Assembly (NCBI GenBank): GCA_016874675.1
Contig: VGTL01000003.1
Span: forward strand, 11,346 to 75,345
Reading direction: 5' to 3'
Length of the DNA: 64,000 nucleotides
Source: Methanobacteriota archaeon
GTDB lineage: Archaea; Thermoplasmatota; DTKX01; VGTL01
The notes under the pieces are model-generated. The model was not told the origin of the DNA and ran no database searches. It saw nothing but the letters and a program-made list of their open reading frames with translations. Positions within the stretch are counted from its first letter, which is position 1, and each line of letters begins with the position of its first letter. The position numbers and the translations under genes are program-made. Below, in pieces: positions 9,270 to 42,002 of this stretch.

Positions 9270-9461
9270 GGCAAACTATTGATAAACTATTTATATGGAG
9301 ATGACAATATTAGCATTGATATGGTGCCGGAATAATAAAAATCGATTTTTATTGGGTAAAATCTGGAGGGTTATTAATATTAACAATGGCAAATATTATC
9401 GTACAATTCTATTATATTCACATATCCAGAATGCCATTATTAATATAGAAAAATATTTATT
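9270..9461. promoter_or_regulatory. AT-rich divergent intergenic region between the 7809-9269 gene (-) and the regulator (+), roughly 200 nt and about 25% GC.
   Basis: Runs of tatttatatgg, aataataaaaatcgatttttatt and ttaatatagaaaaatatttattatg in an otherwise roughly 68% GC genome. Multiple TATA-like boxes. Confidence 0.45.
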
Positions 9462-15106: not shown

Positions 15107-15200
15107 ATACCCAATCGGACTTCTTACAACACCTAATATTCTATTATATCATATTTATAAGTATCGCGCGGACAAGCACCCTCGCATGGAGAGATTCATC
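15107..15200 (-). promoter_or_regulatory. AT-rich promoter region upstream of the 13271-15106 surface-protein gene.
   Basis: tattctattatatcatatttataagtatcgcgcg contains TATA-like boxes upstream of the minus-strand start. Confidence 0.4.
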
Positions 15201-15286
15201 AAACCCGGGTGGAATGGCAATGACCTGCGGAGGGCGGGCCGGGAGTGCTCCGATTCATTCGCGAGCGGTGCATGACATTAACACAA

Positions 15287-15325
15287 AAAAAATCAACGAC
15301 CCCGGGCTTTCGCCCGGGGCCGCAA
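15287..15325 (-). terminator. Hairpin plus T-tract terminator 3' of the second surface-protein gene.
   Basis: Plus strand aaaaaaaatcaacgaccccgggctttcgcccggggccg. On the minus strand this is a hairpin followed by T8. Confidence 0.5.
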
Positions 15326-15331
15326 ATCCGC

Positions 15332-17095: not shown

Positions 17096-17226
17096 TATCT
17101 ATCACCTTTCTTCTTTGTTTTTCCTATCCGTTTTCATACCATATGAAATATCTTCACATTATATATATGTAGTGTTCAATGAAATTCTTCGGGGGCCGAA
17201 TCCCCGGCGCCCGGCGACGGCTCCCC

Positions 17227-18978: not shown

Positions 18979-19210
18979 GACTGGCCACCCTTGTGTCTGC
19001 CCTTGCGGACAGCGTTGCCGTATGTTATGTTCGGTCACCACACCATTCACGCTATATAAACCTAACTGGCCGAACTTCGATTAATGTTCAATTTCATCTT
19101 CGACGATCGCCGATGAATCCTCATAAGTGTTTTTATTCTTTATTATATTTATATAATTTATATATTTATAGAAATGAAAATAGAAGAAGACCGAAACGCC
19201 GAAGCCATGG

Positions 19211-23214: not shown

Positions 23215-23405
23215 TATGAGGCGCAAGGCGCAAGGCGCAGGGCGCAGGGCGCAGGGGGCGAAGGCGCAAGATGGAAGGATCAAGGGAACGACCGCTGATT
23301 CCTCCCTTGTCCCTCGCGCCTCATCCCTCGCGCCTTCAGCCTTGCGCCTCGCGCCTTCAGCCTTGCGCCTCGCGCCCTGCGCCCTGCGCCTTCCCGAAGA
23401 AGTAT
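23215..23405. repeat. Composite palindrome (GGCGCAAGG/GGCGCAGGG ... CCTTGCGCC/CCTCGCGCC).
   Basis: ggcgcaaggcgcaaggcgcagggcgcagggcgcaggg ... cttgcgcctcgcgccttcagccttgcgcctcgcgccctgcgccctgcgcc. Confidence 0.7.
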
Positions 23406-26037: not shown

Positions 26038-26039
26038 AG

Positions 26040-26160
26040 GACGCGGGAAGGGCAGCGGGCAGTGGGCAGCGGCGGACGACGGGCTCCGCGTCGTCACCGC
26101 TCCCTGCTGCCCGCTGCCCGCTGCCTTTCCCCCCCGCTGCCTGCTGCCTTGCTGCCTCGT
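26040..26160. repeat. Composite palindrome (GGGCAGCG/GGGCAGTG ... CTGCCCGCTGCC).
   Basis: gggcagcgggcagtgggcagcggcggacgacgggctccgcgtcgtcaccgctccctgctgcccgctgcccgctgcc. Confidence 0.7.
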
Positions 26161-26251
26161 TTTATATAAGATAATTTATTTATACTTCATACTGTTACGA
26201 ACGTATATTGACGGAAGGTGGCTCGCTCTGAGGCGGTTCGTCGGGGCCGTC

Positions 26252-29200: not shown

Positions 29201-29359
29201 GGAACCGGAATCGACGTCGCCGGGGATGCCGGGAAGGGCGCCATCCAGGGCGAGACGCGAAAGACCGCGGAGGACGGCACCCGCAGGAAGGTACCGCCCA
29301 AGAGGTCCAAGAGGAGATCGAGGGACCGGGCCGGGCAGCGGGGAGGGGACAATCATTAA
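26252..29359 (+). CDS. Large type-I membrane protein. It has a signal peptide, about 8 cadherin-like / putative Ig (He_PIG-type) repeats and a PKD-like region, then one TM helix and a cytoplasmic Glu/Arg-rich coiled-coil tail.
   Basis: Repeats of the form ...ITSTPVTAALQGSPYYYLLTATDPDHDTLRFLVLSAPPNMTVNPLNGLVSWVPGQ.... TM helix ...ALTIIVALGAALAY.... Tail with ERLERKAREWDAALQKEREARELRERARE. Start uncertain (GTG 26252 or CTG 26228). An AT-rich promoter lies at roughly 26160-26215. Confidence 0.6.
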   Translation: MAVLSLLAGLPFQPVQASVYQASAEPVAPSWINPSSRPVAVIGINLSQNSGERLLEVGVSFTDTGGDGDFTTTDLLPLSKDASSGVALYLDNKSAGSFGTFDAADRPIALSAVPAWTAGNSSFRTLLRTGGTAIPANDLGNNTGPDLFVVVRTSSTASEGDDFSVSLGPDDVLVEGGPLDFPAADTDTITVDATSPRARAGPDITVDEGVETGFSAATSTDNIGIANYTWTFGDFGPDFRAWGVYVTHAFAAPGRFLVLLNVTDYAGNSDVAALTVTVRNVNQPPAITSTPVTAALQGSPYYYLLTATDPDHDTLRFLVLSAPPNMTVNPLNGLVSWVPGQGDVGGVSVTLGVTDDKSPVVRQSYTIEVRDVNDPPWFTSLPVYLATQGQSYSYRAGAQDPDNNQLVYGLVAGPANMTVGKFSGLVTWTPAWDQVGLNRVVLSASDGQYTVYQDFCVTVINTNDPPVIVSVPPTTALQGVPYGFRVQAFDPDGDVVRFFLNGSPPGMVLDEVSGVLDWTPSADQVGEVQVKLEATDRHGGQSNLSYTIIVVNVNDPPVITSAPPPTARQGSLYTYQVRVSDPDGDPVTLSLLSHPPGMSVNASSGVVEWVPGQESVGRAEASILASDGRGGIAVQSIQLAVQDTNDAPVFLGGIAPVAYQNQPYVSQVRAFDPDGDQLIYTLINPEEDISLDRQTGTLVWYPRVPQEAKIAVRVTDPNGTSADEVFTVTVRPSPVPPVVQSIGLLRARVGERFTYQIEASDPDGGRLRFSTPSRMLRINATTGVLSFTPRPADAGVHEFTVEVSDTGGMNTTATGVLVVDPEDGGFSLEGIFGFAMAGLAGIDPRLALTIIVALGAALAYQFARLRRLDELERPAGGEAPPGPAGVTEEERRALQLRQSRELEAREAAMRDAGTAGADAGMAAEERERLERKAREWDAALQKEREARELRERAREAGGPVLSREEQERLEREVEEELAAAGLGGTGIDVAGDAGKGAIQGETRKTAEDGTRRKVPPKRSKRRSRDRAGQRGGDNH

Positions 29360-29421
29360 GACCGCAGAGGGAGATTAACCGTGACTTCGGGAATCGGCGG
29401 AAAGCCGGGGGGCGGGGTAGG

Positions 29422-30342
29422 ATGGCGCGCCGCAGGTTGAAGGGCAGTGGTGGCGCCCGGGCCGCTGCCGGCCGGCTGCCGCGCCCGTCCGGGGGCGGGC
29501 GCGCCGGTCCGGCGGCCCCGGGGCGGGCACCGGCAGCCGGGCCACCAGTCCTTCGGGCCGGCCACGTCGACGCCGACCGGTTCGAGCGCTCAAAGCGCGT
29601 GGGCTGGTTCGACTTCGAAAGGATACGGAAGGAGAGGGTGCTGGTGGTCGGGGCGGGGGCCCTGGGGAACGAGGTGGTCAAGAACCTCGTGCTCTCGGGC
29701 TACCGCCGGATATCCCTCGTGGACATGGACCGCGTGGTCTACTCGAACCTGAACCGGTGCGTCTTCTTCTCGGAGGAGGACTCCCGCCGGAAGAGGCTCA
29801 AGGCCGAGGTCGTGGCGAGCAAGGCCGGGCTCCTGGACCGCGAGGCCCGGATAGTACCGTACGACCATCGCATAGAGGAGCTCCCGGACGGTTTCTTCGG
29901 CGACCACGACCTCGTGCTCGGCTGCCTCGACAACATCGCCGCCCGGCTCCACATCAACGCCCGCACCTACCCGCGCCTCATTCCGTACGTGGACGGGGCC
30001 ACGCTCGGCACGGTGGGCAAGGTCCAGGTGGTGCTCCCGCCCGAGACGCCCTGCCTGGAGTGCGGGATGAACCGCACCCACATGAAGGTGCTCGAGAAGC
30101 GCTGGAGCTGCACCGGCCGGGACGTGACCTTCTTCGACCCCAAGCTCGCCGCCGAGATAACCACCACGAGCGTCATCGCGGCGGTCCAGGTGCGCGAGGC
30201 CCTCAAGCTGACCAGCCGCCGGCATGAAAGCTGCATCCGGCACATGTTCTACTACGACGCCACGAGGAACGTTTGCGATGTCCTGCAGGTCGACCTGAAC
30301 CCCAGATGCCCCCACCACGGGGCCCCGGAGGCCGTGGAATGA
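29422..30342 (+). CDS. E1-like ubiquitin/SAMP-activating enzyme (ThiF/MoeB/UBA family).
   Basis: Rossmann motif VLVVGAGALGNEVVKNLVLSGYRRISLVDMDRVVYSNLNRCVFF. CxxC zinc motif (ETPCLECG, later RCPHHG). A disordered Gly/Arg-rich N-terminal extension. The stop overlaps the next gene's ATG (ATGA). Confidence 0.75.
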   Translation: MARRRLKGSGGARAAAGRLPRPSGGGRAGPAAPGRAPAAGPPVLRAGHVDADRFERSKRVGWFDFERIRKERVLVVGAGALGNEVVKNLVLSGYRRISLVDMDRVVYSNLNRCVFFSEEDSRRKRLKAEVVASKAGLLDREARIVPYDHRIEELPDGFFGDHDLVLGCLDNIAARLHINARTYPRLIPYVDGATLGTVGKVQVVLPPETPCLECGMNRTHMKVLEKRWSCTGRDVTFFDPKLAAEITTTSVIAAVQVREALKLTSRRHESCIRHMFYYDATRNVCDVLQVDLNPRCPHHGAPEAVE

Positions 30343-33300
30343 AGGGCCGGTTCGACGCGCTCAAGTACGCCAAATCGCTCGAAAAGCAGCTGAGCGCCGA
30401 CCCGCGCAAGAAGAGGCTCCAAGACGACGTCGCCCGGCTCCAGTCCCGGCTCGCCGACGAGGGCAGGAAGGGCGCCGACGTCTCCGGCCTGGAGAGGCTG
30501 CTCTCGGACGCCTCCTCGGCCGTGGAGGGCGGCGACCTCGGCCTGGCCGAGGAGCTCGTCTCCAGGGCGGAGAAGGGGCTATCGGGGCTGGGGGCGCTCT
30601 CTGTCGAGGAGGCCATCGCTCGGGCGCGCCGGGCGGCCGAGGACGTCGGGATGCTGGGCCTCGACAACGTCCGGGCGCTGGAGCTGATAGGGCAGGCGGA
30701 GGACGCCATCCGAAAGAAAGACCACAGGTCCGCCCGGAAGCTGGCCGTCGCATCGCAAAAGGAGGCGGAAACGGCCCTGGAGGGATCGGTCCAGGACGCC
30801 CTGCCCTATGCCGAGGGCCTCGTCTCGGAGTGCGAGAGGTGCGGGATGGACGTATCGGGACTGCGGGGGAGGCTCTCCGCCGTCCGGGAGCTTTTGGGAA
30901 AGCGGGAGTACAACGCCGCCCTGCAGGAGTGCACCACGCTCGTCGAGGACATCGAGCCCGCCCGGAAGTCCTTCTTCCGCGAGCGCCTCGCCCGGGCGGG
31001 CGAATCCGTCGAGCGCGCCCGGGAGGGGGGCCGGGATGTCTCCGCGCTCGAGGGCTCCCTGGCCCGCGCCCGCAGGCTGCTCGACCTCAAGGACTTCGAG
31101 GGGGCCTGCGAGGCCCTCGGAGAGGTCGAGGCGGCCACAGGCGCGGCGGCGGCCCCGGCCGGCCCGCCGGGACCCGGCCCGGAGGCCCCCCCGGACGAGG
31201 TGGAGGAGGCCTCCGGGGTGCTCTCGGAGCTCAGGTCGGCCATCGCGGCCGGGACCAAGATGGGTCTTGACCTCAAGGCCGAAACGGCCAGGGTGCCCGA
31301 GGTCGAGGGCCTGTTGAAGGCCGGTGACGGCCGGGGCGCCGCCGCCGTCGGGCGGCAGGTGCTGGCGAAGGTGCGCGAGCGCCAGAAGGCCCTCTCCGGG
31401 AGCGCCATAGCGTCGCTCGAGGATGAGGTGGCCCGGCTCCGCAAGGGGGGCGCCTCGGTGGCCCCCGCGCAGAAGGTCCTCGAGCAGGCCTCCGAGAGGC
31501 TGCGGGCCGGCTCCCACGAGGAGGCGTTCGCCCTGGCCCGCCGGGCGGTCGACGAGCTCGACGCCCTCCGGGAAGGGATGGCCGGCTACGCGGAGGCGAT
31601 GTCCCGGTGCAAGGGCCTGCTCAAGGACGCCGCTGGGAGCCGGCTGGACTGCACGCTCGCCGAGCCCCTGGTCGAGGAGGCCCGGGCGGCCGCGGCCCGG
31701 GGCGAGTACCTCGCCGCTGCCGGGAAGCTCGCCGAGGCCCTCGGGTTGCTCGAGGACGCGATGGCCGGCCGGGCCGCCGGCGGCCTCCGGCGGGCGCTGG
31801 AGCTGGTCTCCCGCGCCGACGAGGAGGGGACGGACCTCGAGGACGTCGAGAGGCTGGCGCTCGACGGGCTGGCATTCGAGGAATCCGGGGAGGGCGGGCG
31901 GCTGGGCGAGGTGGCCGCCACCATCGAGCGGCTGGCGGGCTCGCGGGCCCGCTCATCGATGATGGCCCGGGACGCCCTCGACCGGGCCGGCGAGACGATG
32001 GCCGAGGCGATGATGGAGATGCTGGACGTCTCCGACGAGACCCGCAAGGTGGGGCTGGCCGGGGAGGCCCTGCAGAGGGGGGAGTACGAGGACGCCCGGT
32101 TCCTCGCGGAGGACGTCGCCCCGGCCCTCCGCCAGCGGTGCCGCGAGGCCCTGGACCAGTCCATATCGAAGGCGGCCTCGATGGTGGAGGAGCTGGGCCA
32201 GTCCGGGGCCGAGATGCCCCGGGCGCGGGAGTACCTCCGCAGGTCGCGCGAGCTCGCCGAGTGCGGCCGTTTCGGGCTGGGGCACTCCTACGCGCTGCAG
32301 GCGGTCCAGGAGGCCCGCGCGGTCGGCGACCGCTTCCGGGAGGCCCAGGACGCCCGCGCCGCCGTGGAGGCCATGCTCGAGAGCGCGACGGCGCTGGGGG
32401 TGCCCCGGGAGGATTTGGAGGCCGCCCTGTCGGAGGTCAGCTCGGCCATCGAGGTTCGCGCCTACGAGAGGGCAGTGGCGGCCGGGGCGGCCGGACTGGA
32501 GCGGGGCGAGGAGCGCTTCGCCCGGGAGGCCCGCGCCCTGGAGGCGGGCCTCTCCGAGCTCCTGTCGTCGCTTCGCAAGCTGCCCATCGATGGCTCGGCC
32601 GGGGCGGCGGCCCTCAAGGCCGCCCGGGGCCACCTGGGGAAGGCGGAGCACGCCGAGGCCATATCGGCGCTCAGGGGGCCGACCGAGAGCCTGTCGAGGG
32701 CGAGGCGGCAGTACGAGGATTCAGCGGCCGCGCTGGAGGCTGCGCTGGCGCGTCTGTCGGAGGCCGAGGGATACGGCCTGGACGTCTCCGAGATCAGGCC
32801 TGACCTCGAGGCCGCCTCCCGTGCCCATTCCTCCGGCGCCTACGACGAGGGATTCCGGCTTGCGCGCACCGCCCTGGAGCTGGGGGAGCACCTGATCTCC
32901 GAGAGGGCCGCGCAGGCGATGGGGGAGCTCCGGGACCTCCTGGAGTCCACCGAGCGGGCCGGCACCGTCCTCGACGACCTGCACGAGCGCGTCGGGGCGC
33001 TCTCCGGGTGCTTCTCGTCCAAGGCGTTCGGGGGGCTCTTCAAGGAGGCGGTGGCCATACGCGCCGAGATAGGGAGGCGCCGGGCGCGCCACTCCGAGGC
33101 GGTCACGGCCATCCAGGGCATCCAGGCCGCCATCGAGGAGGTCAAGGCGATGGGCGCGGACCTCAGCCCGACCGAGGACCTCCTGGGATTGGCGCGGTTC
33201 GCCTCCGAGCGGGGCTCCTATGACGATGTGCTGGACTACTCCCGGCGGGCGCAGTCGGAGCTCACCGCCGCCGCCGGATCGAGCGTGGACAGGCAGCGGG

Positions 33301-36300
33301 AGGCCCTCGCCGCGCGCATCGCCAGGCACGCCGGCGAGGGTGTGGAGCTTCGGGCCTGCCGGAACGCTCTTTTGGCCAACCCCGGCCTGCTTCCCGACGG
33401 CGGCTTCCGGGCCGTCCTGGCCGACCTCAAACGCATCGAGACCGACATGGAGGTGCGCCGGGACCAGCACCGCAACACCCAGAAGGTCCTGGCGGCAGCC
33501 GAGTCCCGCCTGACCGAGGCCGGGAGCCTGGGGGTCAACACCGCCGATGCCTCCCGGCTCCTCGAGTCGGCAAGGGGGGCCTCTTCGGCCGGCGACTACC
33601 CCAAGGCGGTGGAGCTCGCCGAGCAAGCGCGCGACATCGCCGCCCGCAGCACCGAGAGCCACCAGCAGACCATGGGCGCGATGGAGCTCGCCCGCGCCCA
33701 CCTGCGCGACGCCGAATCGATGGGGGCCGACATCGCCCGTGCCCGGGAGCTCCTGGAGCGGGCGGCCGCGATGTTCGCGGCGCGCAACTACGACGACGCC
33801 ATGGCCCTGGTGGTCGAGAGCGAGACCGATATCCTCCACTCGCAGGAGACGCTGGTGGGGGACACGATGGATCTTGCCCGCTCTACGCTGGATGAGGCCC
33901 AGAAGATCGGCGCCGACACGAACGGCGCCATGGAGCTCCTCGGGCGCGCCGAGAGCGCCAGGCAGGCGCGCGACTTCGGGCCGGCCTTTGCCCTGGCCCG
34001 GGAATCCTACGAGAGCGCCCAGGAGGAGCGTTCCCGCCACAGCACGGCCCTGGGGGCCCTCAGCGAGATCCAGGAGATGGTACAGAAGGCGCAGGCCGAG
34101 GGGGTGCGGGTGGAGCGCCTGGTGAAGGAGCTCGAGCACGCCCGGGAGGCCCTGCAGAGATTCGACTACGAGGGCTGCACCGGCACCGCCGAGCGGGTCC
34201 GGATGCAGGCGGAGGAGTGCATCGGCGCCGCCACGCAGGCCCGGCGGGCGCTGGAGCGCTGCGAGGCCGCCCTCCGCACGGCCACCGAGATGGCTGCCCA
34301 GACCAACGAGGGCGAGGGGCTGCTTCTCCGCTGCCGGGAGCAGTACCAGGCCGGCGAGTACCGCGCCGCCCTCTCCACCGCCGGGACCTGCCACGAGCGC
34401 CTGGCCGCCGCCCAGCACCGCCAGGTCTGGGGCGAGCTCGGCCAGCTGGTCCTCGAGCTAGACGACGCGGAGGATGCGGGGGCCGAGCTCTCGGCGGCGT
34501 GGGGGCTGGCCGAGGAGGCGGGGCTCGCGCTCGCCGGCGGGGACTTCCCCAGCGCGCTCCTGAGGACCCGGGCCGCCCGGACGAGGCTCGCCGAGGCCAC
34601 CCACGCGTTCGAGGGCATCTCCAGCGTCATGCTCGCCAGCCGCCTGATAGTGGACGAGGCGCGCTTCATGGAGGCCGACGTCGCGGTGGCCTCGGACCTC
34701 TCCGCCGGTGCCCAGAGCGAGCTTCGGGCGGGCAACTACCACGGCACCCAGGAGCTGGCGCTCCAGGCGGCGGAGGAGGCCACCCGCAACCAGAGGAGCC
34801 TCCTCAACCAGCTCATCTCGACGGCCGACCGGGCCGTGTCGGAGGCGGCGGGGTGGGGCATCAGGTCGCGCCTTGCGGTCGACCGGCTGGCGCGCTCCCG
34901 GACGGCGATGGAGTTCCAGGACTTCAAGGGGGCCCGCGACCTCCTCGAGGAGTGCGACGACGCGCTGGCGCAGGCGATAACCGACCACAAGGGCGTCTCG
35001 GACAGGATGGCCCAGCTCACCGAGTCCCTCGTGAGGGCCGAGGCGCTCGGCCTGGACCCAGCCCCCGTGCGGAAGGGGGCCGCCGAGGCCGAGACGCTGG
35101 CGGCCCGGGGCGAGTACTCCCGGGCGCTGGAGGCGCTGGGCGACCTGTCCCGGGAGCTGGCCGCGGCCGAGCGCACGCTGGTGTCGGACCGCCTGGAGCA
35201 ATCCCGATTGGCCCTGGAGGAGGCCCTCGCCCAAGGCGTGTTCATCGCCGATGCCGCCCGGGCCATTGAAGGGGCGAGGGGGGCCCTGGAGTCGGGGCAG
35301 TTCCAGTCCGCCCTGGAGCTTGCCGCGGAGGCATCGCGCACGGTGGAGAACAACCGCCAGGAGCACCGGCGGGTCACGGCGATCGTGATGGAGCTCTCCT
35401 CCGAAATCGAGTGCGGCAAGGAGCTGGGTGTGGGGGTCCCCGACTCGCCTGCCGTCCTCTCCGGCGCCCGGGAGCTCCTCTCCCGCGGGGAGTTCGCCCA
35501 GGCCGAGGAGCAGGCGCGCCGGGGCCGCGCCGCCGTGGCGAGCGCCCTCACCGGGGCGATGCAGGGCAACCTCTCCGCGCTGGAGGAGGAGCTGCGCGAG
35601 GCCGAGCGACAGGGCGTTAGGTCGGCGGTGGCCGCCGGGCTCCTGAAGGGGGCCGACCGGGACCTCCGCTCCAGATCCTACTCGGAGATGATCGGCCACA
35701 TCGAGGAGGCGCGCCGGGAGCTCGCCGCGGCCCGCCGGGCCCGTGAGCAGATCCAGCGGACGCTCGAGTCCATGGGCGAGAGGCTGAAGGAGACGGAGGC
35801 GCTGGGCGCCGACGGCGAGGCGGCCTCGGCGCTCGTGGGCCGCGCGATGGAGGTCTCCTCGGAGGGCGACTACGCCCAGGCCCTGGAGCTCCTGGGGGAG
35901 GCCGATCTTGCCGTCGAGGCCGCCCAGCGCGTCCGGGTGGAGGAGGCGCTCTCGGGGGCCTCGGCGCTCGTCGAGGAGGGCGACGCCATCGGCGCGGACA
36001 CGCGCGCCGCCCACAAGGCGCTCGCCGGCGCGAGGAAGGCCCTGGAGGGGAGGGACTACCGGGGGACCTCCGGGCTCGCCCGGGAGGCCCTCGAGGAGGC
36101 CGAGCGGCGGGTCGGGGAGCACCGGCGCAGCATCGAGACTGTGGCCGTATCGGAGAAGACGCTGGCGGACGCCGAGTCCGAGGGGCTGAACGTGGAGCGG
36201 CTGCGCCGCGTGCTGGAGGAGGCACGCCGCAGCCTGCGCAAGCACGACTACCCGGCGGTGGCGGAGGCGGCCGCCCGGATCGACCGGGAGGTCGGGACCC

Positions 36301-39300
36301 TCCTGCGCCAGTCCAGCGAGGCCCGGCGGCTGATAGGCTTCTGCGAGCGCAAAATCGACTCGGCGCGCCATATCGGCGCCGATGTCTCATCGGCGGAGGC
36401 CCTCCTGGCCGAGGCCCGGGCCGCCACGGAGAAGCGGGTCTTCGTGAAGGCCTTCGAGCTCGCCACCCAGTGCCTGCGGCAGATAGACAGCATGCAGCAC
36501 GCCGTCGTGCTGGGGTACCTCACCGACAGCGAGCTCCAGCTCGCCGAGATGGAGGAGGCGGGGGCCGACATCGCCGAGGCCCAGGAACTGATAGAGATCG
36601 CCATCGAGGCCCTCAACGAGAGCGAGTTCGAAAAATCCATGGAGCTCGGCCGCCAGGCGGTCGAGACCGCCCGGGGCAAGATGTCCCAGCACGAGCTGGC
36701 CGCCGAGAGGGTCCGGGAGCTCGAGCGCAAGATGAAGGACGCCACGGAGCTGGGCGGGGACCTGCGCTCCATCGAGAGGCTGCACTCCGAGGCCCGCTCG
36801 GCGCTCCAGTCCCACGACCACGCCCGCCTGGAGGCGATCGCCGGCGAGGCGCTGGAGGCGATGGTCGGCTCCCTCCACGAGCTGGTGGCCACCCGGACCG
36901 CCGAGGCCTCGGCGGTCATCTCGGGCGTCGAGGAGATAGGCGCGGCCGTGGCCAGGGCGCGCGACCGCCTGCTGCGGTCCCGGCGGGCGCTCGAGTGCGA
37001 CGACTTCAAGACGGCCCTCAACCTGCTTGAGGAATCCCAGAGCGCCGCGGGCGCCGCCCGGCTCAGGCACGCCGAGACTCTCGAGGGCGTCAAGGGGCTC
37101 CAGAACATGGCCCGGGAGGCCTCCGAGCTGGGGCTGGACGTGTCGCGGGCCCGGTGGGCGCTGGCCGAGGTGGACGAGGCCATCGACGAGGGCCAGTACG
37201 ACCAGGCCGACCGCATAATCTCCGAAACGCGCGCCGAGCTGGAGAAGGGCTACCTCAGCCACGCCGAGCAGGCGCTCGCCCGGACGGAGGAGGCGCTGGT
37301 CAAGACCCGGGAGCTGGGGGCGGACGTCGGGGCCGAGGTGAAGGCCCTGGCCGAGCTGCGCGTCATCTTCTCGCAGGGACGCTACCAGACGGTGATGAAG
37401 TCGTGCCGGGAATGCCGGCGCAGGCTGGACGAGAGGCTCAACGAGCACATCGCCGGGATCATCCTCCGGGCCGAGAACCTCATAAACGAGGCGGGGAAGG
37501 TGGGGGTGGACGCCCGGGAGTACCGGGAGACCCTGGAGCGCTCCGAGGAGACCGTCAGCGAGGGCGACTACGAGGCGGCCCTCCGTTTGGCCAGCGAGGC
37601 CATCGACCGGACCCGGGCGCTCCTGCGCAGCTCCATATCGGGAACGATATCGACCCTGGGGGGGCTGATAGAGGAGTCGCGCCGCATCGGGGCCGACGTC
37701 CGGGAGGTGGAGGAGTACTCCCGGCAGGCGCTCTCGGCCCTGCAGAAGGACGAGTACGAGCTCGCCCACGACCACGCCCTCTCGGGCATCGCGGCGGTGG
37801 ACCGCGTCCGGGAGGAGTTCATCGTCCGCCGCAGGCAGGAGGTCGAGCGCAAGATCTCCGAGGCCGAGGCGATGGGGGCCCAGGTGGAGGACTTCCGCCG
37901 CTCGACGGCCAAGGCCCAGGAGTTCCTGGAGAGGGCGGACTTCGAGAAGGCCGCCCTGCTGCTTCAGGAGACGGAGGAGAACACCCTCAAGCGGCAGTCG
38001 CGCGTGGCCGAGGAGAGCATCCGCCGGGCCGAGGAGCAGCTCGCCAAGGTGAAGATGGACATAGACCTGGCCCGGGCCCGCTCGCTCCTCGACGAGGCGC
38101 GCAGCGCCCTGGGATACGGGGAGTTCGAGGAGGCGGTGGACTACTCGGTGCAGTGCGTGGAGGAGACGAACCGCGTCCAGGCCCAGTTCGTCGAGGAGGT
38201 GATCGGCACCACGGAGGAGACCATCGCCGCGGCCGCCCAGATGGGCGCCGACACCCAGAAGGCGCGCGAGCTCCTCGACTACTCGCGCGCCGACCGGGAG
38301 GCGGGCAACTTCGACGCCGCCCTGGCGAAGGCTGTGCAGGGGGCGGAGGAGGCCGAGCAGGCCCAGTACGACTTCGTGCGCGGGCCCATCGAGCACATCC
38401 GCCGGGTGATGAAGGAGGCCCGGCTCTCCGACGACAGGATAAAGCGGCTGATGGCGGCGGCCGAGGGGCACCTCGAGAAGAAGGAGTACCAGGAGGCCCG
38501 CCGGGAGGTCATGCGCGCCATGGACCTCACCGGGGAGATCCAGGAGAAGCTCGCCCGCAAGGAGATAATGGACTCCGAGGAGGTCGTGGCCGGGGTCGAG
38601 AAGGCGGGGGCGGTCTCGCCCGTCGCCCGCAACCTGCTCCGGAGCGCCCTGACCGCCATCAACGCCCGCGACTTCGAAAAGGCCATGAAGTTCTCCCGCG
38701 AGTGCTCCGTTCAGGCCATGAAGACGCGCGACGAGTTCGCCTCCGCCCAGAGGGCCCAGACTGCGGCGGAGGCCGAGATCGCCACCCTGAACGAGCTGGG
38801 CCTCATGACCGAGGAGACGGGGGACCTTCGGGACCTCTCGAGGTCCGGGTTCTCCTCCGGCGATTACATGAAGTCGAAAGAGTACTCCGCCCAGGTGGTC
38901 CACAAGGCGGAGTCGCTCTACTTCAAGGCGGCCGGAGAGGCCCTCTCCTCGTCCCAGTTCAAGATAAACTACGCCAGAAACATCGGGGCGGACGTCAGCA
39001 CGGCCGAGAGCCTGCTTCGCGACGCGAAGGCCGCAAACGAGTCCCGGGACTTCCGCCGCACCCTCGAGCTCGCCCGGCGCTGCCGAGAGGAGGCCGAGAG
39101 GGCCAAGGAGCGCTACAAGGAGCTCGTGGACACCATCTACTCCGCCGAGTCGAAGATATCGGTCGCCCACACCTACGGCCTGGACACCTCCGCCGCCGAG
39201 CGGCTGCTCTCGATGGCGGTGGCCCAGAAGTCGAAAAACGGCGAGGAGGCCCTCGATTTCGCCCGCCAGAGCATGGAGGAGGTCCAGCGGGCCCTCGAGA

Positions 39301-39824
39301 GGTTCACCCCCGACATCAAGGTCGAGATAAAGCTCGAGGGGGTGCTCCAGAAGGAGCGGTGGAGCCAGGCCTCCCTGACCATCTCGAACACCGGGAAGGC
39401 GACGGCCAAGGACATCTCCGTGCGCTTCAGCGGCGACCTCGAGGTGCAGGGCGGCGAGCGCGTGAGCGTTCTGCGCGGCGGGGAGAGCCGGAGGCAGTCC
39501 GTGCGGGTCCGGCCCTCGAAGGGCGGGGACCTGCCCCTGGGAACGAGCGTGGTGAGCTTGAGGGAGTTCGACGACAAGGAGTTCCGGTCACAGGAGACGC
39601 GCTGGATCCGCGTGGAGGACGCCACACCCCTGGCGACGCCCCTCAACCAGTTCGTCACCAAGTCCGTGAGGTGCCATATCTGCCTGGGCACGATAAAGTC
39701 CGGGCTGCCCCTCGTGCGGTGCGAGTGCGGCAAGACCTACCACGAGACCTGCGCCTCGCGCGTGGGGGAGTGTCCCAACTGCGGGCGGGACCTGCATAAC
39801 GTCGGCCCGGGCGGGGGGGGCTGA
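30339..39824 (+). CDS. Giant (3161 aa) alpha-helical repeat protein: about 40 tandem copies of a 65-75-aa unit, a beta-rich domain, then a C-terminal C4HC3 RING-variant/PHD-like zinc finger. Candidate E3-like scaffold.
   Basis: Repeat core G-[AV]-D-[VT]-x3-A-x2-LL-x2-A-x2-A-x4-[DE]-[YF]-x2-A-x2-LA, for example GADVSRARELLERAAAMFAARNYDDAMALV. C-terminus CHICLGTIKSGLPLVRCECGKTYHETCASRVGECPNCG fits C-x2-C-x12-C-x-C-x4-H-x2-C-x6-C-x2-C. Translationally coupled to the E1 gene. Confidence 0.7.
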   Translation: MKGRFDALKYAKSLEKQLSADPRKKRLQDDVARLQSRLADEGRKGADVSGLERLLSDASSAVEGGDLGLAEELVSRAEKGLSGLGALSVEEAIARARRAAEDVGMLGLDNVRALELIGQAEDAIRKKDHRSARKLAVASQKEAETALEGSVQDALPYAEGLVSECERCGMDVSGLRGRLSAVRELLGKREYNAALQECTTLVEDIEPARKSFFRERLARAGESVERAREGGRDVSALEGSLARARRLLDLKDFEGACEALGEVEAATGAAAAPAGPPGPGPEAPPDEVEEASGVLSELRSAIAAGTKMGLDLKAETARVPEVEGLLKAGDGRGAAAVGRQVLAKVRERQKALSGSAIASLEDEVARLRKGGASVAPAQKVLEQASERLRAGSHEEAFALARRAVDELDALREGMAGYAEAMSRCKGLLKDAAGSRLDCTLAEPLVEEARAAAARGEYLAAAGKLAEALGLLEDAMAGRAAGGLRRALELVSRADEEGTDLEDVERLALDGLAFEESGEGGRLGEVAATIERLAGSRARSSMMARDALDRAGETMAEAMMEMLDVSDETRKVGLAGEALQRGEYEDARFLAEDVAPALRQRCREALDQSISKAASMVEELGQSGAEMPRAREYLRRSRELAECGRFGLGHSYALQAVQEARAVGDRFREAQDARAAVEAMLESATALGVPREDLEAALSEVSSAIEVRAYERAVAAGAAGLERGEERFAREARALEAGLSELLSSLRKLPIDGSAGAAALKAARGHLGKAEHAEAISALRGPTESLSRARRQYEDSAAALEAALARLSEAEGYGLDVSEIRPDLEAASRAHSSGAYDEGFRLARTALELGEHLISERAAQAMGELRDLLESTERAGTVLDDLHERVGALSGCFSSKAFGGLFKEAVAIRAEIGRRRARHSEAVTAIQGIQAAIEEVKAMGADLSPTEDLLGLARFASERGSYDDVLDYSRRAQSELTAAAGSSVDRQREALAARIARHAGEGVELRACRNALLANPGLLPDGGFRAVLADLKRIETDMEVRRDQHRNTQKVLAAAESRLTEAGSLGVNTADASRLLESARGASSAGDYPKAVELAEQARDIAARSTESHQQTMGAMELARAHLRDAESMGADIARARELLERAAAMFAARNYDDAMALVVESETDILHSQETLVGDTMDLARSTLDEAQKIGADTNGAMELLGRAESARQARDFGPAFALARESYESAQEERSRHSTALGALSEIQEMVQKAQAEGVRVERLVKELEHAREALQRFDYEGCTGTAERVRMQAEECIGAATQARRALERCEAALRTATEMAAQTNEGEGLLLRCREQYQAGEYRAALSTAGTCHERLAAAQHRQVWGELGQLVLELDDAEDAGAELSAAWGLAEEAGLALAGGDFPSALLRTRAARTRLAEATHAFEGISSVMLASRLIVDEARFMEADVAVASDLSAGAQSELRAGNYHGTQELALQAAEEATRNQRSLLNQLISTADRAVSEAAGWGIRSRLAVDRLARSRTAMEFQDFKGARDLLEECDDALAQAITDHKGVSDRMAQLTESLVRAEALGLDPAPVRKGAAEAETLAARGEYSRALEALGDLSRELAAAERTLVSDRLEQSRLALEEALAQGVFIADAARAIEGARGALESGQFQSALELAAEASRTVENNRQEHRRVTAIVMELSSEIECGKELGVGVPDSPAVLSGARELLSRGEFAQAEEQARRGRAAVASALTGAMQGNLSALEEELREAERQGVRSAVAAGLLKGADRDLRSRSYSEMIGHIEEARRELAAARRAREQIQRTLESMGERLKETEALGADGEAASALVGRAMEVSSEGDYAQALELLGEADLAVEAAQRVRVEEALSGASALVEEGDAIGADTRAAHKALAGARKALEGRDYRGTSGLAREALEEAERRVGEHRRSIETVAVSEKTLADAESEGLNVERLRRVLEEARRSLRKHDYPAVAEAAARIDREVGTLLRQSSEARRLIGFCERKIDSARHIGADVSSAEALLAEARAATEKRVFVKAFELATQCLRQIDSMQHAVVLGYLTDSELQLAEMEEAGADIAEAQELIEIAIEALNESEFEKSMELGRQAVETARGKMSQHELAAERVRELERKMKDATELGGDLRSIERLHSEARSALQSHDHARLEAIAGEALEAMVGSLHELVATRTAEASAVISGVEEIGAAVARARDRLLRSRRALECDDFKTALNLLEESQSAAGAARLRHAETLEGVKGLQNMAREASELGLDVSRARWALAEVDEAIDEGQYDQADRIISETRAELEKGYLSHAEQALARTEEALVKTRELGADVGAEVKALAELRVIFSQGRYQTVMKSCRECRRRLDERLNEHIAGIILRAENLINEAGKVGVDAREYRETLERSEETVSEGDYEAALRLASEAIDRTRALLRSSISGTISTLGGLIEESRRIGADVREVEEYSRQALSALQKDEYELAHDHALSGIAAVDRVREEFIVRRRQEVERKISEAEAMGAQVEDFRRSTAKAQEFLERADFEKAALLLQETEENTLKRQSRVAEESIRRAEEQLAKVKMDIDLARARSLLDEARSALGYGEFEEAVDYSVQCVEETNRVQAQFVEEVIGTTEETIAAAAQMGADTQKARELLDYSRADREAGNFDAALAKAVQGAEEAEQAQYDFVRGPIEHIRRVMKEARLSDDRIKRLMAAAEGHLEKKEYQEARREVMRAMDLTGEIQEKLARKEIMDSEEVVAGVEKAGAVSPVARNLLRSALTAINARDFEKAMKFSRECSVQAMKTRDEFASAQRAQTAAEAEIATLNELGLMTEETGDLRDLSRSGFSSGDYMKSKEYSAQVVHKAESLYFKAAGEALSSSQFKINYARNIGADVSTAESLLRDAKAANESRDFRRTLELARRCREEAERAKERYKELVDTIYSAESKISVAHTYGLDTSAAERLLSMAVAQKSKNGEEALDFARQSMEEVQRALERFTPDIKVEIKLEGVLQKERWSQASLTISNTGKATAKDISVRFSGDLEVQGGERVSVLRGGESRRQSVRVRPSKGGDLPLGTSVVSLREFDDKEFRSQETRWIRVEDATPLATPLNQFVTKSVRCHICLGTIKSGLPLVRCECGKTYHETCASRVGECPNCGRDLHNVGPGGGG

Positions 39825-39864
39825 GGGAATGCGGGCACGGGGCGGAGCGAGGGGGCCGAGCCGC

Positions 39865-39905
39865 TACATGCCAGGGACAAAAAGTAAATATAAGGAAATG
39901 CGAAT
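39865..39905 (+). promoter_or_regulatory. AT-rich promoter-like element upstream of the Ub-like gene.
   Basis: caaaaagtaaatataaggaaatgcgaatatgg, a TATA-like taaatataagg in GC-rich context. An aggggt RBS-like sequence precedes the ATG at 39981. Confidence 0.4.
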
Positions 39906-39980
39906 ATGGTTGCCGTAAAGGGTACAAAGCGGAGGTTTTGACGGACTACGGCCTTGCTCGGCTGCGGGAAAGGGGTATTG

Positions 39981-40223
39981 ATGACCACCAGGGTGACGAT
40001 AAAGGACGCGGACACCGGCAGCAGGATCGAGATGGACCTTGAACCGGACAACACCATCGAGGAGACCATCGAGAGCGCCGCCAGCTACTGGGAGAAGGAG
40101 GCCGGGGCGTACGTCCTCCGCTGCGGCAAGAGGGTGCTCCGCGGTCAAATCACGCTTGCCGAATCGGGGATCCGAGAGGGCGATGTCCTGGAGCTCATCC
40201 CCGATCCCGAGGGCGGAGCGTGA
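39981..40223 (+). CDS. Small ubiquitin-like beta-grasp protein (80 aa) ending ...PEGG-A.
   Basis: MTTRVTIKDADTGSRIEMDLEPDNTIEETIE...VLELIPDPEGGA. Ubiquitin-like in length and pattern, with a C-terminal diglycine followed by one extra residue. Confidence 0.6.
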   Translation: MTTRVTIKDADTGSRIEMDLEPDNTIEETIESAASYWEKEAGAYVLRCGKRVLRGQITLAESGIREGDVLELIPDPEGGA

Positions 40224-40390
40224 GAGCCCCCTTGGCCGTCGCGCTGGGCCGGGGGAGGGGAGAGGGAACCGGGGTGCTGGGTCGGACCGGGACGGGCCGG
40301 TCCCGTGAAGGGGGGGTGTGAGGAACGCCGCTTCCCAAGGAGATACTTCGAAGGAGGCTCCAGAACGAGATAGCCCAGGTCCGCCGCAAG

Positions 40391-40873
40391 ATGATCCACA
40401 CCATCGTGGTCTCGGACCCCACTTTCAGCACGTTCCCCGTGGAGATAAAGGTCACGCTGCGCGGCGTGCCGGGGCCCATCCTTCGCGACGGCAAGGTCTC
40501 CCACAAGTTCACCCACAAGTTCACGATGGAGATCACCGATGACTATCCCTATCACAAGCCCATAGTGAGGTGGGAGACGCCGGCGTTCCACCCCAACGTG
40601 ATGCTCCCCGAGGACGGCGGCTACGTGTGCACGCGCCTTTTAGACGAGTGGGACTTCAACTCGACGCTGCTCACCTTCTTCAAGGGCATAGAGTCGCTTC
40701 TGTCCAACCCCAATCCCGCCAACCCGTACGGCACGGACAGCTGCACCCGCGCCGCCGAGTACTTCAACAAGCACCCCTACAAGCCCCCCGAGATAGTCCA
40801 GTCCGCCAAGAAGGCGCCGCGGATACTCGGGGACCGCAACGAGCCCGAGCGGGCGGGCGACCCGGGCGGGTGA
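40391..40873 (+). CDS. E2-like ubiquitin-conjugating enzyme (UBC fold).
   Basis: HPN motif and catalytic Cys in ...WETPAFHPNVMLPEDGGYVCTRLLDEWDFNSTLLTFF.... The upstream in-frame sequence LRRRLQNEIAQVRRK resembles the UBC N-terminal helix, so the true start may lie upstream at 40322-40390. Confidence 0.65.
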   Translation: MIHTIVVSDPTFSTFPVEIKVTLRGVPGPILRDGKVSHKFTHKFTMEITDDYPYHKPIVRWETPAFHPNVMLPEDGGYVCTRLLDEWDFNSTLLTFFKGIESLLSNPNPANPYGTDSCTRAAEYFNKHPYKPPEIVQSAKKAPRILGDRNEPERAGDPGG

Positions 40874-40916
40874 GCCCAACGGCCGAAGCGTCCGCGACAT
40901 CGGGGGTGCAGTAGGC

Positions 40917-41858
40917 TTGTCGGACCGGCCCAAGATCGTCGCCGAGAGGAAGCGCCGGGCCCGCGAGATGAAGCCGCCCCAGGACTTCATCATCCACGAG
41001 TGGGGGAAGCCCTACGCCGGCATAGAGGTCTACATATCCCAATTGGCGTTCGACAAGATGATGAAGCAGTGCTCTCTCTACGCCAAGCGCCACCTCGAGG
41101 CGCTGGGCTACCTGGTGGGCGACTACTGCCGGTGGAAGAACAAGGAGTACACCATAGTCGAGGACGCCGTGACCTCGGACCTGGACACCACCTCCGTGTC
41201 GGTCCACTTCCAGGCCTTCGAGAAGGCGTTCGACCAGCTGGACCGGATAGACTTCGACTACGTCCTCGTCGGCTGGTACCACTCCCACCCGGGCCACGGC
41301 TGCTTCATGTCCCAGACCGACATATCGACGCAGAAGCGGATGTTCAACAAGTCGTTCCACCTAGCGATAGTCATCGACCCCATCAACAAGGAGTTCAAGG
41401 TCTACAAGATGGACGGCCCGGTGCCGGAGGAGAAGGTCTTCGGGATATACCGCAACCTCAACGGCGAGGGGCCTCCCTCCCTGGAGGTGCACGGGCCCGG
41501 CGCGGAGGGCTATGCGCCCTACGGGGACCGGAACTCGACGCCGGCCTACGAGCCCGGGTCGGCGCCCCGCGGGGGGGCCGCCCGGGCCAAGGCGGCCGCC
41601 CGCACCGAGGCCGAGCGCATCGCCCGCGAGCGCGAGAGCCAGCGCCGCTCCCGCGAGCGCGCCGCCGAGAGGACCCGGCTCTTCAGCACGGCGCTGCTCC
41701 TCTTGCCGCTCTTCTTCGCGGCTTTCGGCGGGGTGCTGGGCTTCGCCCTCGCGTTCCAGAGGGACCGCGTGGCGGCGTGGGTCATCCTGGCCGTCGGCGG
41801 GGTCATGACCGTCCTCTGGGCATTGTGGGCGGCGGCGGGACCGCCGTTCATTGGGTAG
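40917..41858 (+). CDS. JAMM/MPN+ metalloprotease (Rpn11/deubiquitinase-like) with a C-terminal membrane anchor.
   Basis: Exact JAMM motif GWYHSHPGHGCFMSQTDI (H-S-H-x7-S-x2-D) with an upstream Glu. C-terminal hydrophobic helices LFSTALLLLPLFFAAFGGVLGFALAF and VAAWVILAVGGVMTVLWALWAAAG. Confidence 0.75.
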   Translation: MSDRPKIVAERKRRAREMKPPQDFIIHEWGKPYAGIEVYISQLAFDKMMKQCSLYAKRHLEALGYLVGDYCRWKNKEYTIVEDAVTSDLDTTSVSVHFQAFEKAFDQLDRIDFDYVLVGWYHSHPGHGCFMSQTDISTQKRMFNKSFHLAIVIDPINKEFKVYKMDGPVPEEKVFGIYRNLNGEGPPSLEVHGPGAEGYAPYGDRNSTPAYEPGSAPRGGAARAKAAARTEAERIARERESQRRSRERAAERTRLFSTALLLLPLFFAAFGGVLGFALAFQRDRVAAWVILAVGGVMTVLWALWAAAGPPFIG

Positions 41859-41859
41859 A

Positions 41860-42002
41860 TCGGCTCGGGGGACGTGTTGTTGATATCGGTTAGGGGGACT
41901 TGTTTTTCCTGTCGGTGAATGGAAGACGGCGGTAGAAAAACGAATGTACTTGTTCTCGTCTACCCCCTACCCGATCTCACCCGCACGTCCCCCGAACCGA
42001 TT
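41860..42002. terminator. Long imperfect inverted repeat between the convergent JAMM and leuB genes. Likely a bidirectional terminator.
   Basis: Arms cggctcgggggacgtgttgttgatatcggttagggggac and gtctaccccctacccgatctcacccgcacgtcccccgaaccg flank a T/A-rich centre (cttgtttttcc ... gaaaaacgaa). Confidence 0.4.

Follow-up and report, generated by a model that had tools for sequence, protein, structure and literature searches.

Could a deubiquitinase be held at the membrane in an archaeon that belongs to neither the Asgard nor the TACK lineage, and on which proteins would it act? The question is raised by a gene at positions 40917-41858 of a 64-kb stretch of a Thermoplasmatota genome (contig VGTL01000003.1; the whole stretch of 64,000 nucleotides that was analysed is called the window below), which encodes a JAMM/MPN+ protease of the Rpn11 type ending in two hydrophobic helices. 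The reading moderately favoured here is that the protein is a membrane-anchored Rpn11-type deubiquitinase (DUB), which would trim the precursor of ubiquitin (pro-Ub) and remove ubiquitin (Ub) from membrane-proximal targets. The evidence comes from the architecture of the protein, the conservation of its tail in two divergent clades, the genes around it, and fusions that join JAMM domains to RING fingers.

Catalytic domain and hydrophobic tail of the JAMM protein

The gene and the parts of its product are as follows (aa, amino acids; pLDDT, predicted local distance difference test score).

40917..41858, + strand: gene for the Rpn11-like JAMM/MPN+ protease with predicted C-terminal anchor (313 aa, TTG start, TAG stop; open reading frame (ORF) list, Pfam and PDB matches)
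40917..41021, + strand: N-terminal motif RPKIVAERKRR...PP, residues 1-35 (kept in soluble and anchored Thermoplasmatota JAMMs)
41022..41450, + strand: MPN+/JAMM catalytic domain, residues 36-178 (E61, H122-S-H124, S132, D135; Pfam JAB, invariant columns, AlphaFold2, Foldseek)
41451..41573, + strand: disordered Pro/Gly-rich linker, residues 179-219 (pLDDT <50 at 183-212; 38% identity within the clade)
41574..41675, + strand: Arg/Glu/Ala-rich 'stalk' helix, residues 220-253 (continuous with the first hydrophobic helix in AlphaFold2; 27% identity within the clade)
41676..41756, + strand: hairpin hydrophobic helix 1, residues 254-280 (invariant P264, G271, G272, G275)
41757..41768, + strand: charged hairpin loop QRDR, residues 281-284 (83% identity within the clade)
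41769..41837, + strand: hairpin hydrophobic helix 2, residues 285-307 (invariant G294, W301)

The reading frame is well founded. Orthologues begin at the same position, with ATG, GTG or TTG as the codon there, so that the start call is sound, and the four strings quoted in a first-pass annotation of this DNA (GWYHSHPGHGCFMSQTD, AARAKAAARTEAERIARERESQRRSRERAAER, LFSTALLLLPLFFAAFGGVLGFALAF and VAAWVILAVGGVMTVLWALWAAAG) are all found in the 313-aa translation. The protein is 100% identical to NCBI entry MBM4248014.1 (FJ149_00975), a 'hypothetical protein' from a Euryarchaeota archaeon metagenome-assembled genome, and its relatives carry the taxon labels Thermoplasmata, Thermoplasmatota or Methanomassiliicoccales. 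With these labels and a PAN-type proteasomal ATPase encoded upstream, there is no doubt that the host is an archaeon.

The family assignment is supported by sequence and by fold. Pfam JAB (PF01398) matches residues 37-141 with a score of 45.9 bits (cut-off 22.5; E = 5.7e-12). Among all PDB sequences the match to yeast Rpn11 (5e-15) leads, with Rpn11 of plants and humans and the Caldiarchaeum subterraneum Rpn11 homologue CsRpn11 (4e-13) also among the best; CSN5 and AMSH come next, and the matches to AMSH/STAMBP and yeast Sst2 are weak but significant (about 5e-4). The MPN+ site had been called intact at first pass and is so: the motif E...HxH-x7-S-x2-D is complete, and the zinc and catalytic residues E61, H122, H124, S132 and D135 are invariant in 65 aligned homologues. 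An AlphaFold2 model built on the alignment of these homologues has pLDDT values of 88-96 over residues 40-180; in a Foldseek search it matched Rpn11 (4owp, 7e-11) and CsRpn11 (6fjv, TM-score 0.77, 32% identity), and the top 50 matches were all MPN proteins. In the sequence alignment, residues 87-100 fall on the Ins-1 region of yeast Rpn11, the segment by which that enzyme clamps the tail of Ub. The NCBIfam desampylase equivalog desamp_Halo scored 22.4 bits against the JAMM protein, where its cut-off is 130. Because Rpn11 and CsRpn11 are the best matches and the desampylase model falls far below its threshold, the protein is placed by its sequence in the Rpn11 branch of the JAMM/MPN+ family and not in the SAMP branch.

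Beyond the catalytic domain, the linker and C-terminal hydrophobic helices noticed at first pass were borne out by hydropathy, insertion energies, structure prediction and codon analysis. Kyte-Doolittle profiles (19-residue windows) peak at 2.35 (residues 260-278) and 2.25 (residues 285-303), and the summed Hessa apparent insertion free energies of the two helices are -0.66 and -0.86. On the same scale no 19-residue segment of E1, E2, the giant RING protein described below or LeuB falls below +6, and the MMPL transporter encoded in the window, which served as positive control, reaches -2.3. Two such hydrophobic segments were found in none of 2000 shuffles of the JAMM protein. The AlphaFold2 model shows a disordered stretch at 183-212 (pLDDT <50), an unbroken helix at 220-280, a three-residue turn and a second helix at 284-306 (pLDDT ~90), such that the charged stalk runs straight into the first hydrophobic helix. 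Hydropathy and the model together support the prediction that the JAMM protein is an integral membrane protein with two transmembrane (TM) helices, and the anchor is a two-helix hairpin module rather than a simple tail anchor.

In genomes as rich in G+C as this one (65-74% across the window) many long spurious ORFs arise, and the hydrophobic tail could in principle be an out-of-frame or chance extension of a soluble JAMM gene; two homologues (P0022 and P0023) do have unrelated C-termini, probably as a result of frameshifted assemblies. The G+C content at third codon positions is 0.93 in the tail, however, and over the last 60 codons the comparison with orthologue L001 gives 26 identical, 23 synonymous and 8 non-synonymous positions, so that synonymous changes far exceed non-synonymous ones. 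These two results indicate that the tail is coding and under selection, and not a chance extension or frameshift. The shuffles did not reproduce it, and over 30 independent sequences, obtained from different samples, end in the same tail. Homologue survey, shuffles and codon analysis thus refute an artefact, the probability of which is regarded as negligible.

The hairpin in JAMM homologues and in other archaeal proteins

Whether the tail might be missing from orthologues was one of the doubts raised at first pass, and it is not: it occurs in close orthologues and also in a distant clade. Among 101 JAMM homologues (E <1e-5), 32 have two C-terminal hydrophobic helices. They comprise every close orthologue whose C-terminus is intact (P0001-P0021 and P0024; 64-85% identity) as well as a distant group, 30-53% identical in the JAMM domain (P0026-P0029, P0031, P0036, P0037, P0043, P0047 and P0050). 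The latter, on contigs of about 50% G+C, is referred to for convenience as the marine clade. Within the window clade the JAMM domain is 88% identical, the linker and stalk 27-38% and the hairpin 64%; between the clades the corresponding values are 50, 7-10 and 23%. The linker changes from Arg/Ala/Glu-rich in the window clade to long and acidic in the marine clade, and six positions of the tail (P264, G271, G272, G275, G294 and W301) are invariant across the two clades, which are about 33% identical overall. In some 20 orthologues the tail evolves under purifying selection.

The remaining homologues end differently. About 60 of them, mostly of Methanomassiliicoccales type and about 210 aa long, have a short basic tail without a TM helix; others end in a zinc ribbon (P0033, P0034, P0038 and P0082) or a soluble helical tail (P0025 and P0041), and CsRpn11 lacks the hairpin. 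Since zinc-ribbon, soluble helical, basic and hairpin tails all occur there, the JAMM C-terminus is a hot spot for accessory modules. In a neighbour-joining tree of the JAMM domain (made without bootstrap and to be read as a rough guide), the anchored forms lie in one region and the Methanomassiliicoccales-type forms in another, with one small soluble pair nested among the anchored JAMMs. The simplest reading of these sequences would be one old JAMM-hairpin fusion with occasional loss.

The hairpin is not confined to JAMM proteins. A profile of the tail only, run over 1.84 billion representative proteins, had 557 matches at E <= 1e-3, among which non-JAMM proteins reached 7e-13; E-values for hydrophobic segments may be somewhat inflated, the aligned Pro/Gly/charged-loop pattern being the specific feature. 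The best 150 of the 557 matches were inspected. The non-JAMM carriers among them are small archaeal proteins with the same two-helix unit, of consensus roughly WYLLPIFFGIIGGIIGY-favkdrDkkmA-LLIlGIvmt, and the only JAMM proteins among them are members of the window and marine clades. The signature of the module (P-x6-G-G-x2-G, a short charged loop, then G-x6-W, in two hydrophobic helices) is present in full in the JAMM tail, where QRDR is the counterpart of the k-D-R-D-K-K loop. Position was counted in the 145 listed matches that were new relative to the homologue search (P0102-P0246): the module is N-terminal in 42, C-terminal in 41, alone in 40 and elsewhere in 6, and the strict motif is absent from 16. 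Of these 145, 25 also carry CxxC...CxxC zinc ribbons. Some module proteins have DUF4352 or Ig-like domains, and several from Bathyarchaeota (P0125, P0170) have PCI/winged-helix repeats (Pfam PCI 8e-16, DDRGK 8e-8). The link to PCI is intriguing, as eukaryotic MPN proteins have PCI proteins as partners, but the phylum is a different one and the link may be a coincidence. Scans of the JAMM tail and ten other carriers with Pfam and NCBIfam models gave only sub-threshold noise, with no model for the hairpin. The JAMM anchor thus appears to be a copy of a mobile, widespread archaeal membrane hairpin. A hidden Markov model of the tail, run against all six reading frames, found no second copy in the 64-kb window, hence no partner with the module is encoded nearby.

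The marine clade shows further variation around the JAMM (JAB) gene, with the order primase-E2-(45-aa ORF)-JAB-TM and at times a second or fused JAB. The PKIV...PP motif that is N-terminal in the window JAMM is there a separate ORF of 45-47 aa between E2 and JAB (L005 9808-11533, L006 6636-7889, L077 8984-11089, L078 8499-10802), which in L006 is in frame with JAB and one stop codon away from it. The marine JAB may be doubled, as a tandem in L077 (263 aa and 362 aa) or as a head-to-tail fusion in P0027 (510 aa, with HSHPGH in both copies), an arrangement that recalls MPN-MPN or Rpn8-Rpn11 pairs.

The ubiquitin gene set and its probable links to the membrane

The JAMM gene is the last of a series of genes on the + strand in the order type-I protein, E1, giant RING protein, Ub, E2, JAMM.

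25961..29359, + strand: type-I surface protein (signal-peptide-like N-terminus; PKD/He_PIG/cadherin-like Ig repeats; true start probably near 26200)
26157..26191, + strand: AT-rich TATA-like element, presumed promoter of the type-I-E1-giant unit (base composition)
29422..30342, + strand: E1-like ThiF-family adenylating enzyme (Pfam ThiF 3e-45; start uncertain, ORF call from 29056)
30273..39824, + strand: giant soluble protein, 3,162-3,183 aa by the start chosen (~45 helical repeats of ~63 aa, CARDB-like beta domain, C-terminal RING)
39672..39782, + strand: RING of the giant protein (CHIC-x12-CEC-x4-H-x2-C-x6-C-x2-C, full Cys/His ligand pattern)
39877..39899, + strand: AT-rich element resembling a TATA box and B recognition element, presumed promoter of Ub-E2-JAMM (sole stretch with at least 10 of 12 A/T in 26191-42000)
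39981..40223, + strand: ubiquitin-like protein, 80 aa, ending ...PEGG-A (pro-form, one residue past Gly-Gly)
40325..40873, + strand: E2, UBC fold (Pfam UQ_con 3e-14; ORF-finder ATG at 40391; best PDB matches UBE2C, UBE2A and UBC9)
41900..41907, + strand: T-run (TTGTTTTT), presumed archaeal terminator, 42 nucleotides past the JAMM stop (leuB converges on it)

From base composition we infer two transcription units, [type-I protein-E1-giant RING] and [Ub-E2-JAMM]; the E1 stop overlaps the start of the giant gene, and between the type-I gene and E1 there is no AT-rich stretch resembling a promoter. Six loci (L001-L004, L075 and L076) keep the order giant RING-Ub-E2-JAMM-TM. In a metagenome scan, from which the upstream synteny is taken, the order PAN/MBF1-like/MMPL/type-I protein/E1/giant was repeated in twelve loci, PAN being a type of proteasomal ATPase that is also encoded upstream in the window. 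In every relative the locus lies between MMPL/PAN and leuBCD. A scan of GTDB representative genomes with E1 recovered only relatives at most 62% identical, with soluble JAMMs or in unrelated contexts, and did not recover the window clade. No similarity to the giant gene or the type-I gene was found in Methanomassiliicoccales-type loci within the sequence up to 10 kb from E1. In the marine clade, L005 has a weak match to the giant protein (20% identity over 768 aa, E = 6e-7), and none was seen among the large ORFs compared in L006, L077 and L078.

The closest solved relatives of the Ub protein are ubiquitin, the ubiquitin-like domain of Rad23 and NEDD8, and its orthologues end in GGA, GGG or GGHGQRV. 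It is 100% identical to its counterpart in L001 (9156-9395) and 98.75% identical to that in L003 (9084-9323), genomes in which the JAMM protein is 81 and 67% and the giant protein 67 and 50% identical, respectively; such extreme conservation is reminiscent of eukaryotic ubiquitin. The giant protein has the repeat motif ..G-a-D-v-s-x-A-e-x-LL..A......g-d-Y..A, and its orthologues measure 3,106-3,256 aa, the last ~60 residues (the RING region) being near-invariant and the remainder 36-67% identical. Its RING scores 21.6-25.1 bits with Prok-RING_1 and 20.9-24.3 bits with zf-RING_2, both under the Pfam cut-offs, and no description of an archaeal RING protein like it was found in the literature searched. 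Of the core components only the JAMM protein has hydrophobic helices; neither a TM helix nor a signal peptide is present in E1, E2, Ub or the giant protein, which places the ubiquitin chemistry in the cytoplasm.

The gene starts and gene junctions of the set have some unusual features. The E2 reading frame appears to extend upstream of the ATG at 40391, since a conserved N-terminal helix (PLPKEILRRRLQNEIAQVRRK) is encoded in frame from about 40325, with synonymous differences between loci. Downstream of the in-frame TGA at 40319 this extension has no ATG, GTG or TTG (window 40319-40393). The codon at the start position is ACG in the window, in L001 (9396-9470) and in L003 (about 9400-9478), CTG in L075 and ATG in locus L076 and in the Methanomassiliicoccales locus L008. 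L001 has the stop codon of Ub in the reading frame of E2, only four codons ahead of the N-terminal helix. The E2 gene appears to use a non-canonical start codon. The type-I gene likewise has no obvious ATG, GTG or TTG between the TATA-like box and the basic n-region of the signal peptide (..DGRWLALRRFVGAVVAVLSLLAG; window 26195-26260), and the two cases hint at non-canonical start codons or leaderless transcripts in this organism. At the E2-JAMM junction (window 40800-40935) the motif P-[KR]-I-[VL] is common to the C-terminus of E2 (..PPEIVQSAKKAPRILGD; ..PPKIVK in relatives) and the N-terminus of the JAMM protein, and it may be a shared docking motif or the remnant of an old gene-junction duplication. 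Intergenic GC-rich heptamer inverted repeats, (GGCGCAG)n/(CTGCGCC)n and (GGGCAGC)n/(GCTGCCC)n, occur at 23218-23392 and 26045-26131, with arms of 26-47 nucleotides that are 79-92% complementary, each directly upstream of the AT-rich promoter-like box of the next gene. Three tandem paralogous genes for CARDB/DUF11 surface proteins (587-611 aa; window 13271-19050, - strand) are also present, the giant RING protein carrying a CARDB-like domain as well.

Two observations in relatives link this gene set to the membrane independently of the hairpin. The type-I protein has one TM helix at about residues 931-962 followed by a Glu/Arg-rich cytoplasmic tail of ~170 aa, and in all 12 orthologous loci its gene immediately precedes that of E1. 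In three of its orthologues of 981-995 aa (L041 5599-8586, L047 5510-8467 and L048 156-3101) a RING finger follows the TM helix (e.g., CGLCDRQISIKAGSDHHACPCGAHYHSKCFRRAGRCPRCGR); it is of the same type as the giant's (BLASTP 3e-9; Prok-RING_1 20 bits, sub-threshold), and these loci retain the giant RING protein too. In these sister lineages the type-I protein is therefore a transmembrane RING protein of this ubiquitin system. The earlier suggestion that the membrane tethering of the JAMM protein may be linked to the type-I protein encoded upstream of E1 gains from the cytoplasmic RING in the three sister loci and from the missing promoter-like element before E1, but it does not extend to a RING on the window's own type-I protein, which has none. 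The stalk of the JAMM protein is Arg/Glu-rich like the tails of the type-I and giant proteins; a functional link between them was considered and rejected, as the resemblance is probably compositional (the genome is high in GC, and marine clade linkers are acidic).

The second observation concerns fusions. P0087 (L080 3065-4129) unites zinc ribbon, RING and JAMM in one polypeptide, and P0089 (L079 66-1379) consists of ~70 N-terminal residues, a very hydrophobic helix at 73-91, RGR, an acidic linker, RING and JAMM. Both come from contigs too short for gene context. Their RING fingers align with that of the giant protein (3e-10 and 3e-8), and the fusions connect the E3 finger with the DUB in the Rosetta-stone sense. 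With RGR on the C-terminal side of the TM helix, the RING-JAMM portion of P0089 is placed in the cytoplasm at the membrane, and P0089 appears to be a second, independent means of holding RING-JAMM at the cytoplasmic membrane face.

Proposed membrane-proximal deconjugation, its alternatives and known systems

From the established domain architecture, anchor conservation, operon context and fusions, a mechanism may be proposed for the inferred catalysis, cytoplasmic orientation, membrane localisation and substrates of the JAMM protein. An N-in/C-in orientation, with the catalytic domain (residues about 36-178) in the cytoplasm, is deduced from the cytoplasmic partners and from P0089. The domain would be held to the membrane by a leash of ~75 residues, made of the disordered stretch (~40 residues) and the charged stalk helix (~35 residues) leading into the first membrane helix, with the hairpin as the anchor. 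As the product of the last gene of a Ub-E2-JAMM transcription unit, it would belong to a eukaryote-like system of E1, E2, RING E3(s), Ub and DUB. Judging from its characterised homologue in Caldiarchaeum, it would trim the single Ala after Gly-Gly of the Ub precursor, yielding activatable Ub, and would hydrolyse Ub-lysine isopeptide bonds. Because the enzyme would be anchored, its isopeptidase activity would be limited to the membrane, with deconjugation in a shell of roughly 10-15 nm beneath it. There it may counteract or edit the ubiquitylation of membrane-proximal targets by the RING ligases that the locus encodes, a candidate target being the cytoplasmic tail of the type-I protein.

Several points weigh against this proposal. 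The positive-inside rule is ambiguous for the topology, the QRDR loop having two Arg, and in the marine clade the hairpin loop is strongly basic and the N-terminal flank acidic, which bears on orientation. Maturation needs no anchor because pro-Ub is soluble, and a second, soluble JAMM may possibly be encoded elsewhere in the genome, outside the 64-kb window. The adjacency of the type-I gene and E1 is confined to one clade in which the whole neighbourhood is syntenic, and by itself therefore proves little; the type-I tail in the window and in L034-L039 is a long Cys-free charged (Glu/Arg-rich) segment without RING. That anchor, giant RING and type-I protein occur together amounts in essence to a single evolutionary event. 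Finally, the hairpin is promiscuous, occurring with zinc ribbons, wHTH/PCI repeats and Ig-like domains, and may do more than anchoring, or something other than it, such as helix packing or oligomerisation by way of the conserved glycines.

The anchor could serve instead to keep a constitutively active DUB off cytosolic conjugates, such that those made by the giant E3 survive and only Ub diffusing to the membrane (precursor, free chains) is processed. The absence of TM helices from E1, E2 and the giant E3 would suit such insulation, as would the variation of the leash in length and composition, from which the exact geometry seems unimportant; the type-I orthologues with a TM helix and RING and the TM-RING-JAMM fusion argue that the targets are at the membrane. 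This alternative is judged rather unlikely, and it is compatible with membrane-proximal deconjugation, not exclusive of it. Less likely still is that the hairpin is mainly a helix-helix device, for JAMM dimerisation or for docking to the type-I protein or the MMPL transporter, comparable to eukaryotic MPN-MPN pairs. G271, G272, G275 and G294 are small and invariant, as is typical where helices pack tightly, the tandem and fused double JABs of the marine clade (L077; P0027) recall Rpn8-Rpn11 pairs, and the same hairpin is found on many unrelated small proteins; on the other side, no hairpin-bearing partner is encoded in the window, and a dimerised enzyme would still sit in the membrane.

It is improbable that the enzyme is a pure Ub-precursor maturase with an anchor unrelated to its substrates and kept by drift in two clades. 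All Ub orthologues have residues past Gly-Gly and need trimming, and this is the only JAMM in the operon, yet drift is hard to reconcile with purifying selection on the hairpin, with its retention across clades whose linkers have diverged beyond recognition, and with the independent gain of membrane attachment in P0089. It is very improbable that the locus is an antiviral conjugation system comparable to the E1/E2/JAB sets of bacterial Bil or CBASS, with an effector or regulator bound to the membrane. The PADLOC matches behind it are weak (JAB 3.8e-7, E1 domain 5.6e-11, BilD 2e-6) and are to generic domains, for which reason the defence-system reading of the JAB was rejected; no PADLOC model matches E2 or Ub. 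Eukaryotic Rpn11 and UBE2 are the nearest relatives of the enzymes, the core-genome position between MMPL/PAN and leuBCD is conserved in every relative, and Ub is 99-100% conserved, unlike variable defence islands.

The proposal of membrane-proximal deconjugation can be widened, tentatively and with considerable doubt, to a membrane-centred ubiquitylation circuit outside Asgard, TACK and eukaryotes. In such a circuit the type-I protein would present a RING or docking tail on the cytoplasmic side, the giant RING scaffold and E2 would mark the cytoplasmic parts of envelope proteins, and the anchored Rpn11 homologue would erase the marks or recycle Ub before extraction or degradation. If it exists, it would be a prokaryotic counterpart of endoplasmic reticulum (ER)-associated degradation (ERAD) or of endocytic ubiquitin editing. 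In eukaryotes, ubiquitin writers and erasers placed at membranes underlie ERAD, endosomal sorting and the control of mitophagy. To our knowledge, archaeal eukaryote-like ubiquitin systems have been characterised only with soluble components (Caldiarchaeum, Asgard). Here, in the euryarchaeal lineage Thermoplasmatota, a DUB with a predicted membrane anchor is found across divergent clades, together with a transmembrane RING in sister lineages and an anchored RING-JAMM fusion elsewhere. The sequences suggest that an archaeon outside Asgard and TACK has a ubiquitin system linked to the membrane, and that ubiquitin signalling at membranes extends beyond eukaryotes and the archaea most closely related to them; if so, ubiquitin writers and erasers would have been put on a membrane without an endomembrane system. 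The small size of the system (six genes, a precursor Ub and a single DUB) makes reconstitution realistic, and its anchor draws attention to a very common archaeal membrane hairpin without annotation. In the full-text literature searched, which leaves out most subscription journals, neither a membrane-anchored archaeal JAMM nor this Thermoplasmatota locus was found to be described, and the conserved JAMM-hairpin architecture is apparently undescribed; a Thermoplasmatota E2 clade appears in a 2023 preprint, in a tree only.

Compared with known systems, the eukaryotic enzymes Rpn11/PSMD14 of the proteasome lid and CSN5 are the best sequence and fold matches and have the identical E...HxH...S..D motif. 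They are placed by PCI/MPN complexes with an inactive MPN partner, whereas the window JAMM would be placed by its bilayer anchor, and no Rpn8-like partner was found in the 64-kb window. AMSH/STAMBP and yeast Sst2 are JAMM DUBs that edit ubiquitin on membrane cargo, at endosomes. AMSH is peripheral and is recruited by ESCRT proteins via its MIT and SBM motifs, whereas the window JAMM is predicted to be integral to the membrane. USP19 at the ER and USP30 at the mitochondrial outer membrane are DUBs that are confined by a TM segment and oppose local E3 ligases. They share the logic of a TM-anchored DUB, but are cysteine proteases of the USP type with a single TM helix and no homology to the window JAMM.

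Among archaea, the E1-Ub-E2-JAMM operons of Methanomassiliicoccales type (e.g., L007, L008 and L013) are close in content, with identities of 51-61% for E1, 50-70% for Ub, 50-65% for E2 and 38-41% for JAMM, and their JAMMs share the N-terminal PKIV...PP motif with that of the window, but are ~210 aa long with a short basic tail and no TM helix. The archaeal hairpin module matches the JAMM tail position for position (P, GG, G, basic/acidic loop, G, W); elsewhere it occurs alone or on zinc ribbons, PCI/wHTH repeats, DUF4352 or Ig-like domains.

The nearest studied counterpart is CsRpn11 of Candidatus Caldiarchaeum subterraneum (PDB 6FJU/6FJV/6FNN; PMC6043591, PMC5654768), likewise an archaeal MPN+ enzyme that stands alone and is encoded alongside Ub, E1, E2 and RING genes. 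It cleaves conjugates as well as its own Ub precursor, the latter precisely behind Gly-Gly (PMC6043591), and in both systems Ub is made as a precursor that needs this cut. CsRpn11 is a soluble protein (PMC6043591), which agrees, as do the ~210-aa Methanomassiliicoccales JAMMs without TM helix, with the first-pass remark that such enzymes are normally soluble. The host of the window JAMM belongs to Thermoplasmatota and not to TACK or Asgard, and its E3 partner is a protein of ~3,180 aa, in contrast to the small RING protein of Caldiarchaeum. CsRpn11 has 202 aa, to which the window JAMM adds a leash of ~75 aa and the two-helix hairpin. Since it is neither about 200 aa long nor, by prediction, soluble, the window JAMM is best described as a variant of the CsRpn11 type and not as a plain member of it.

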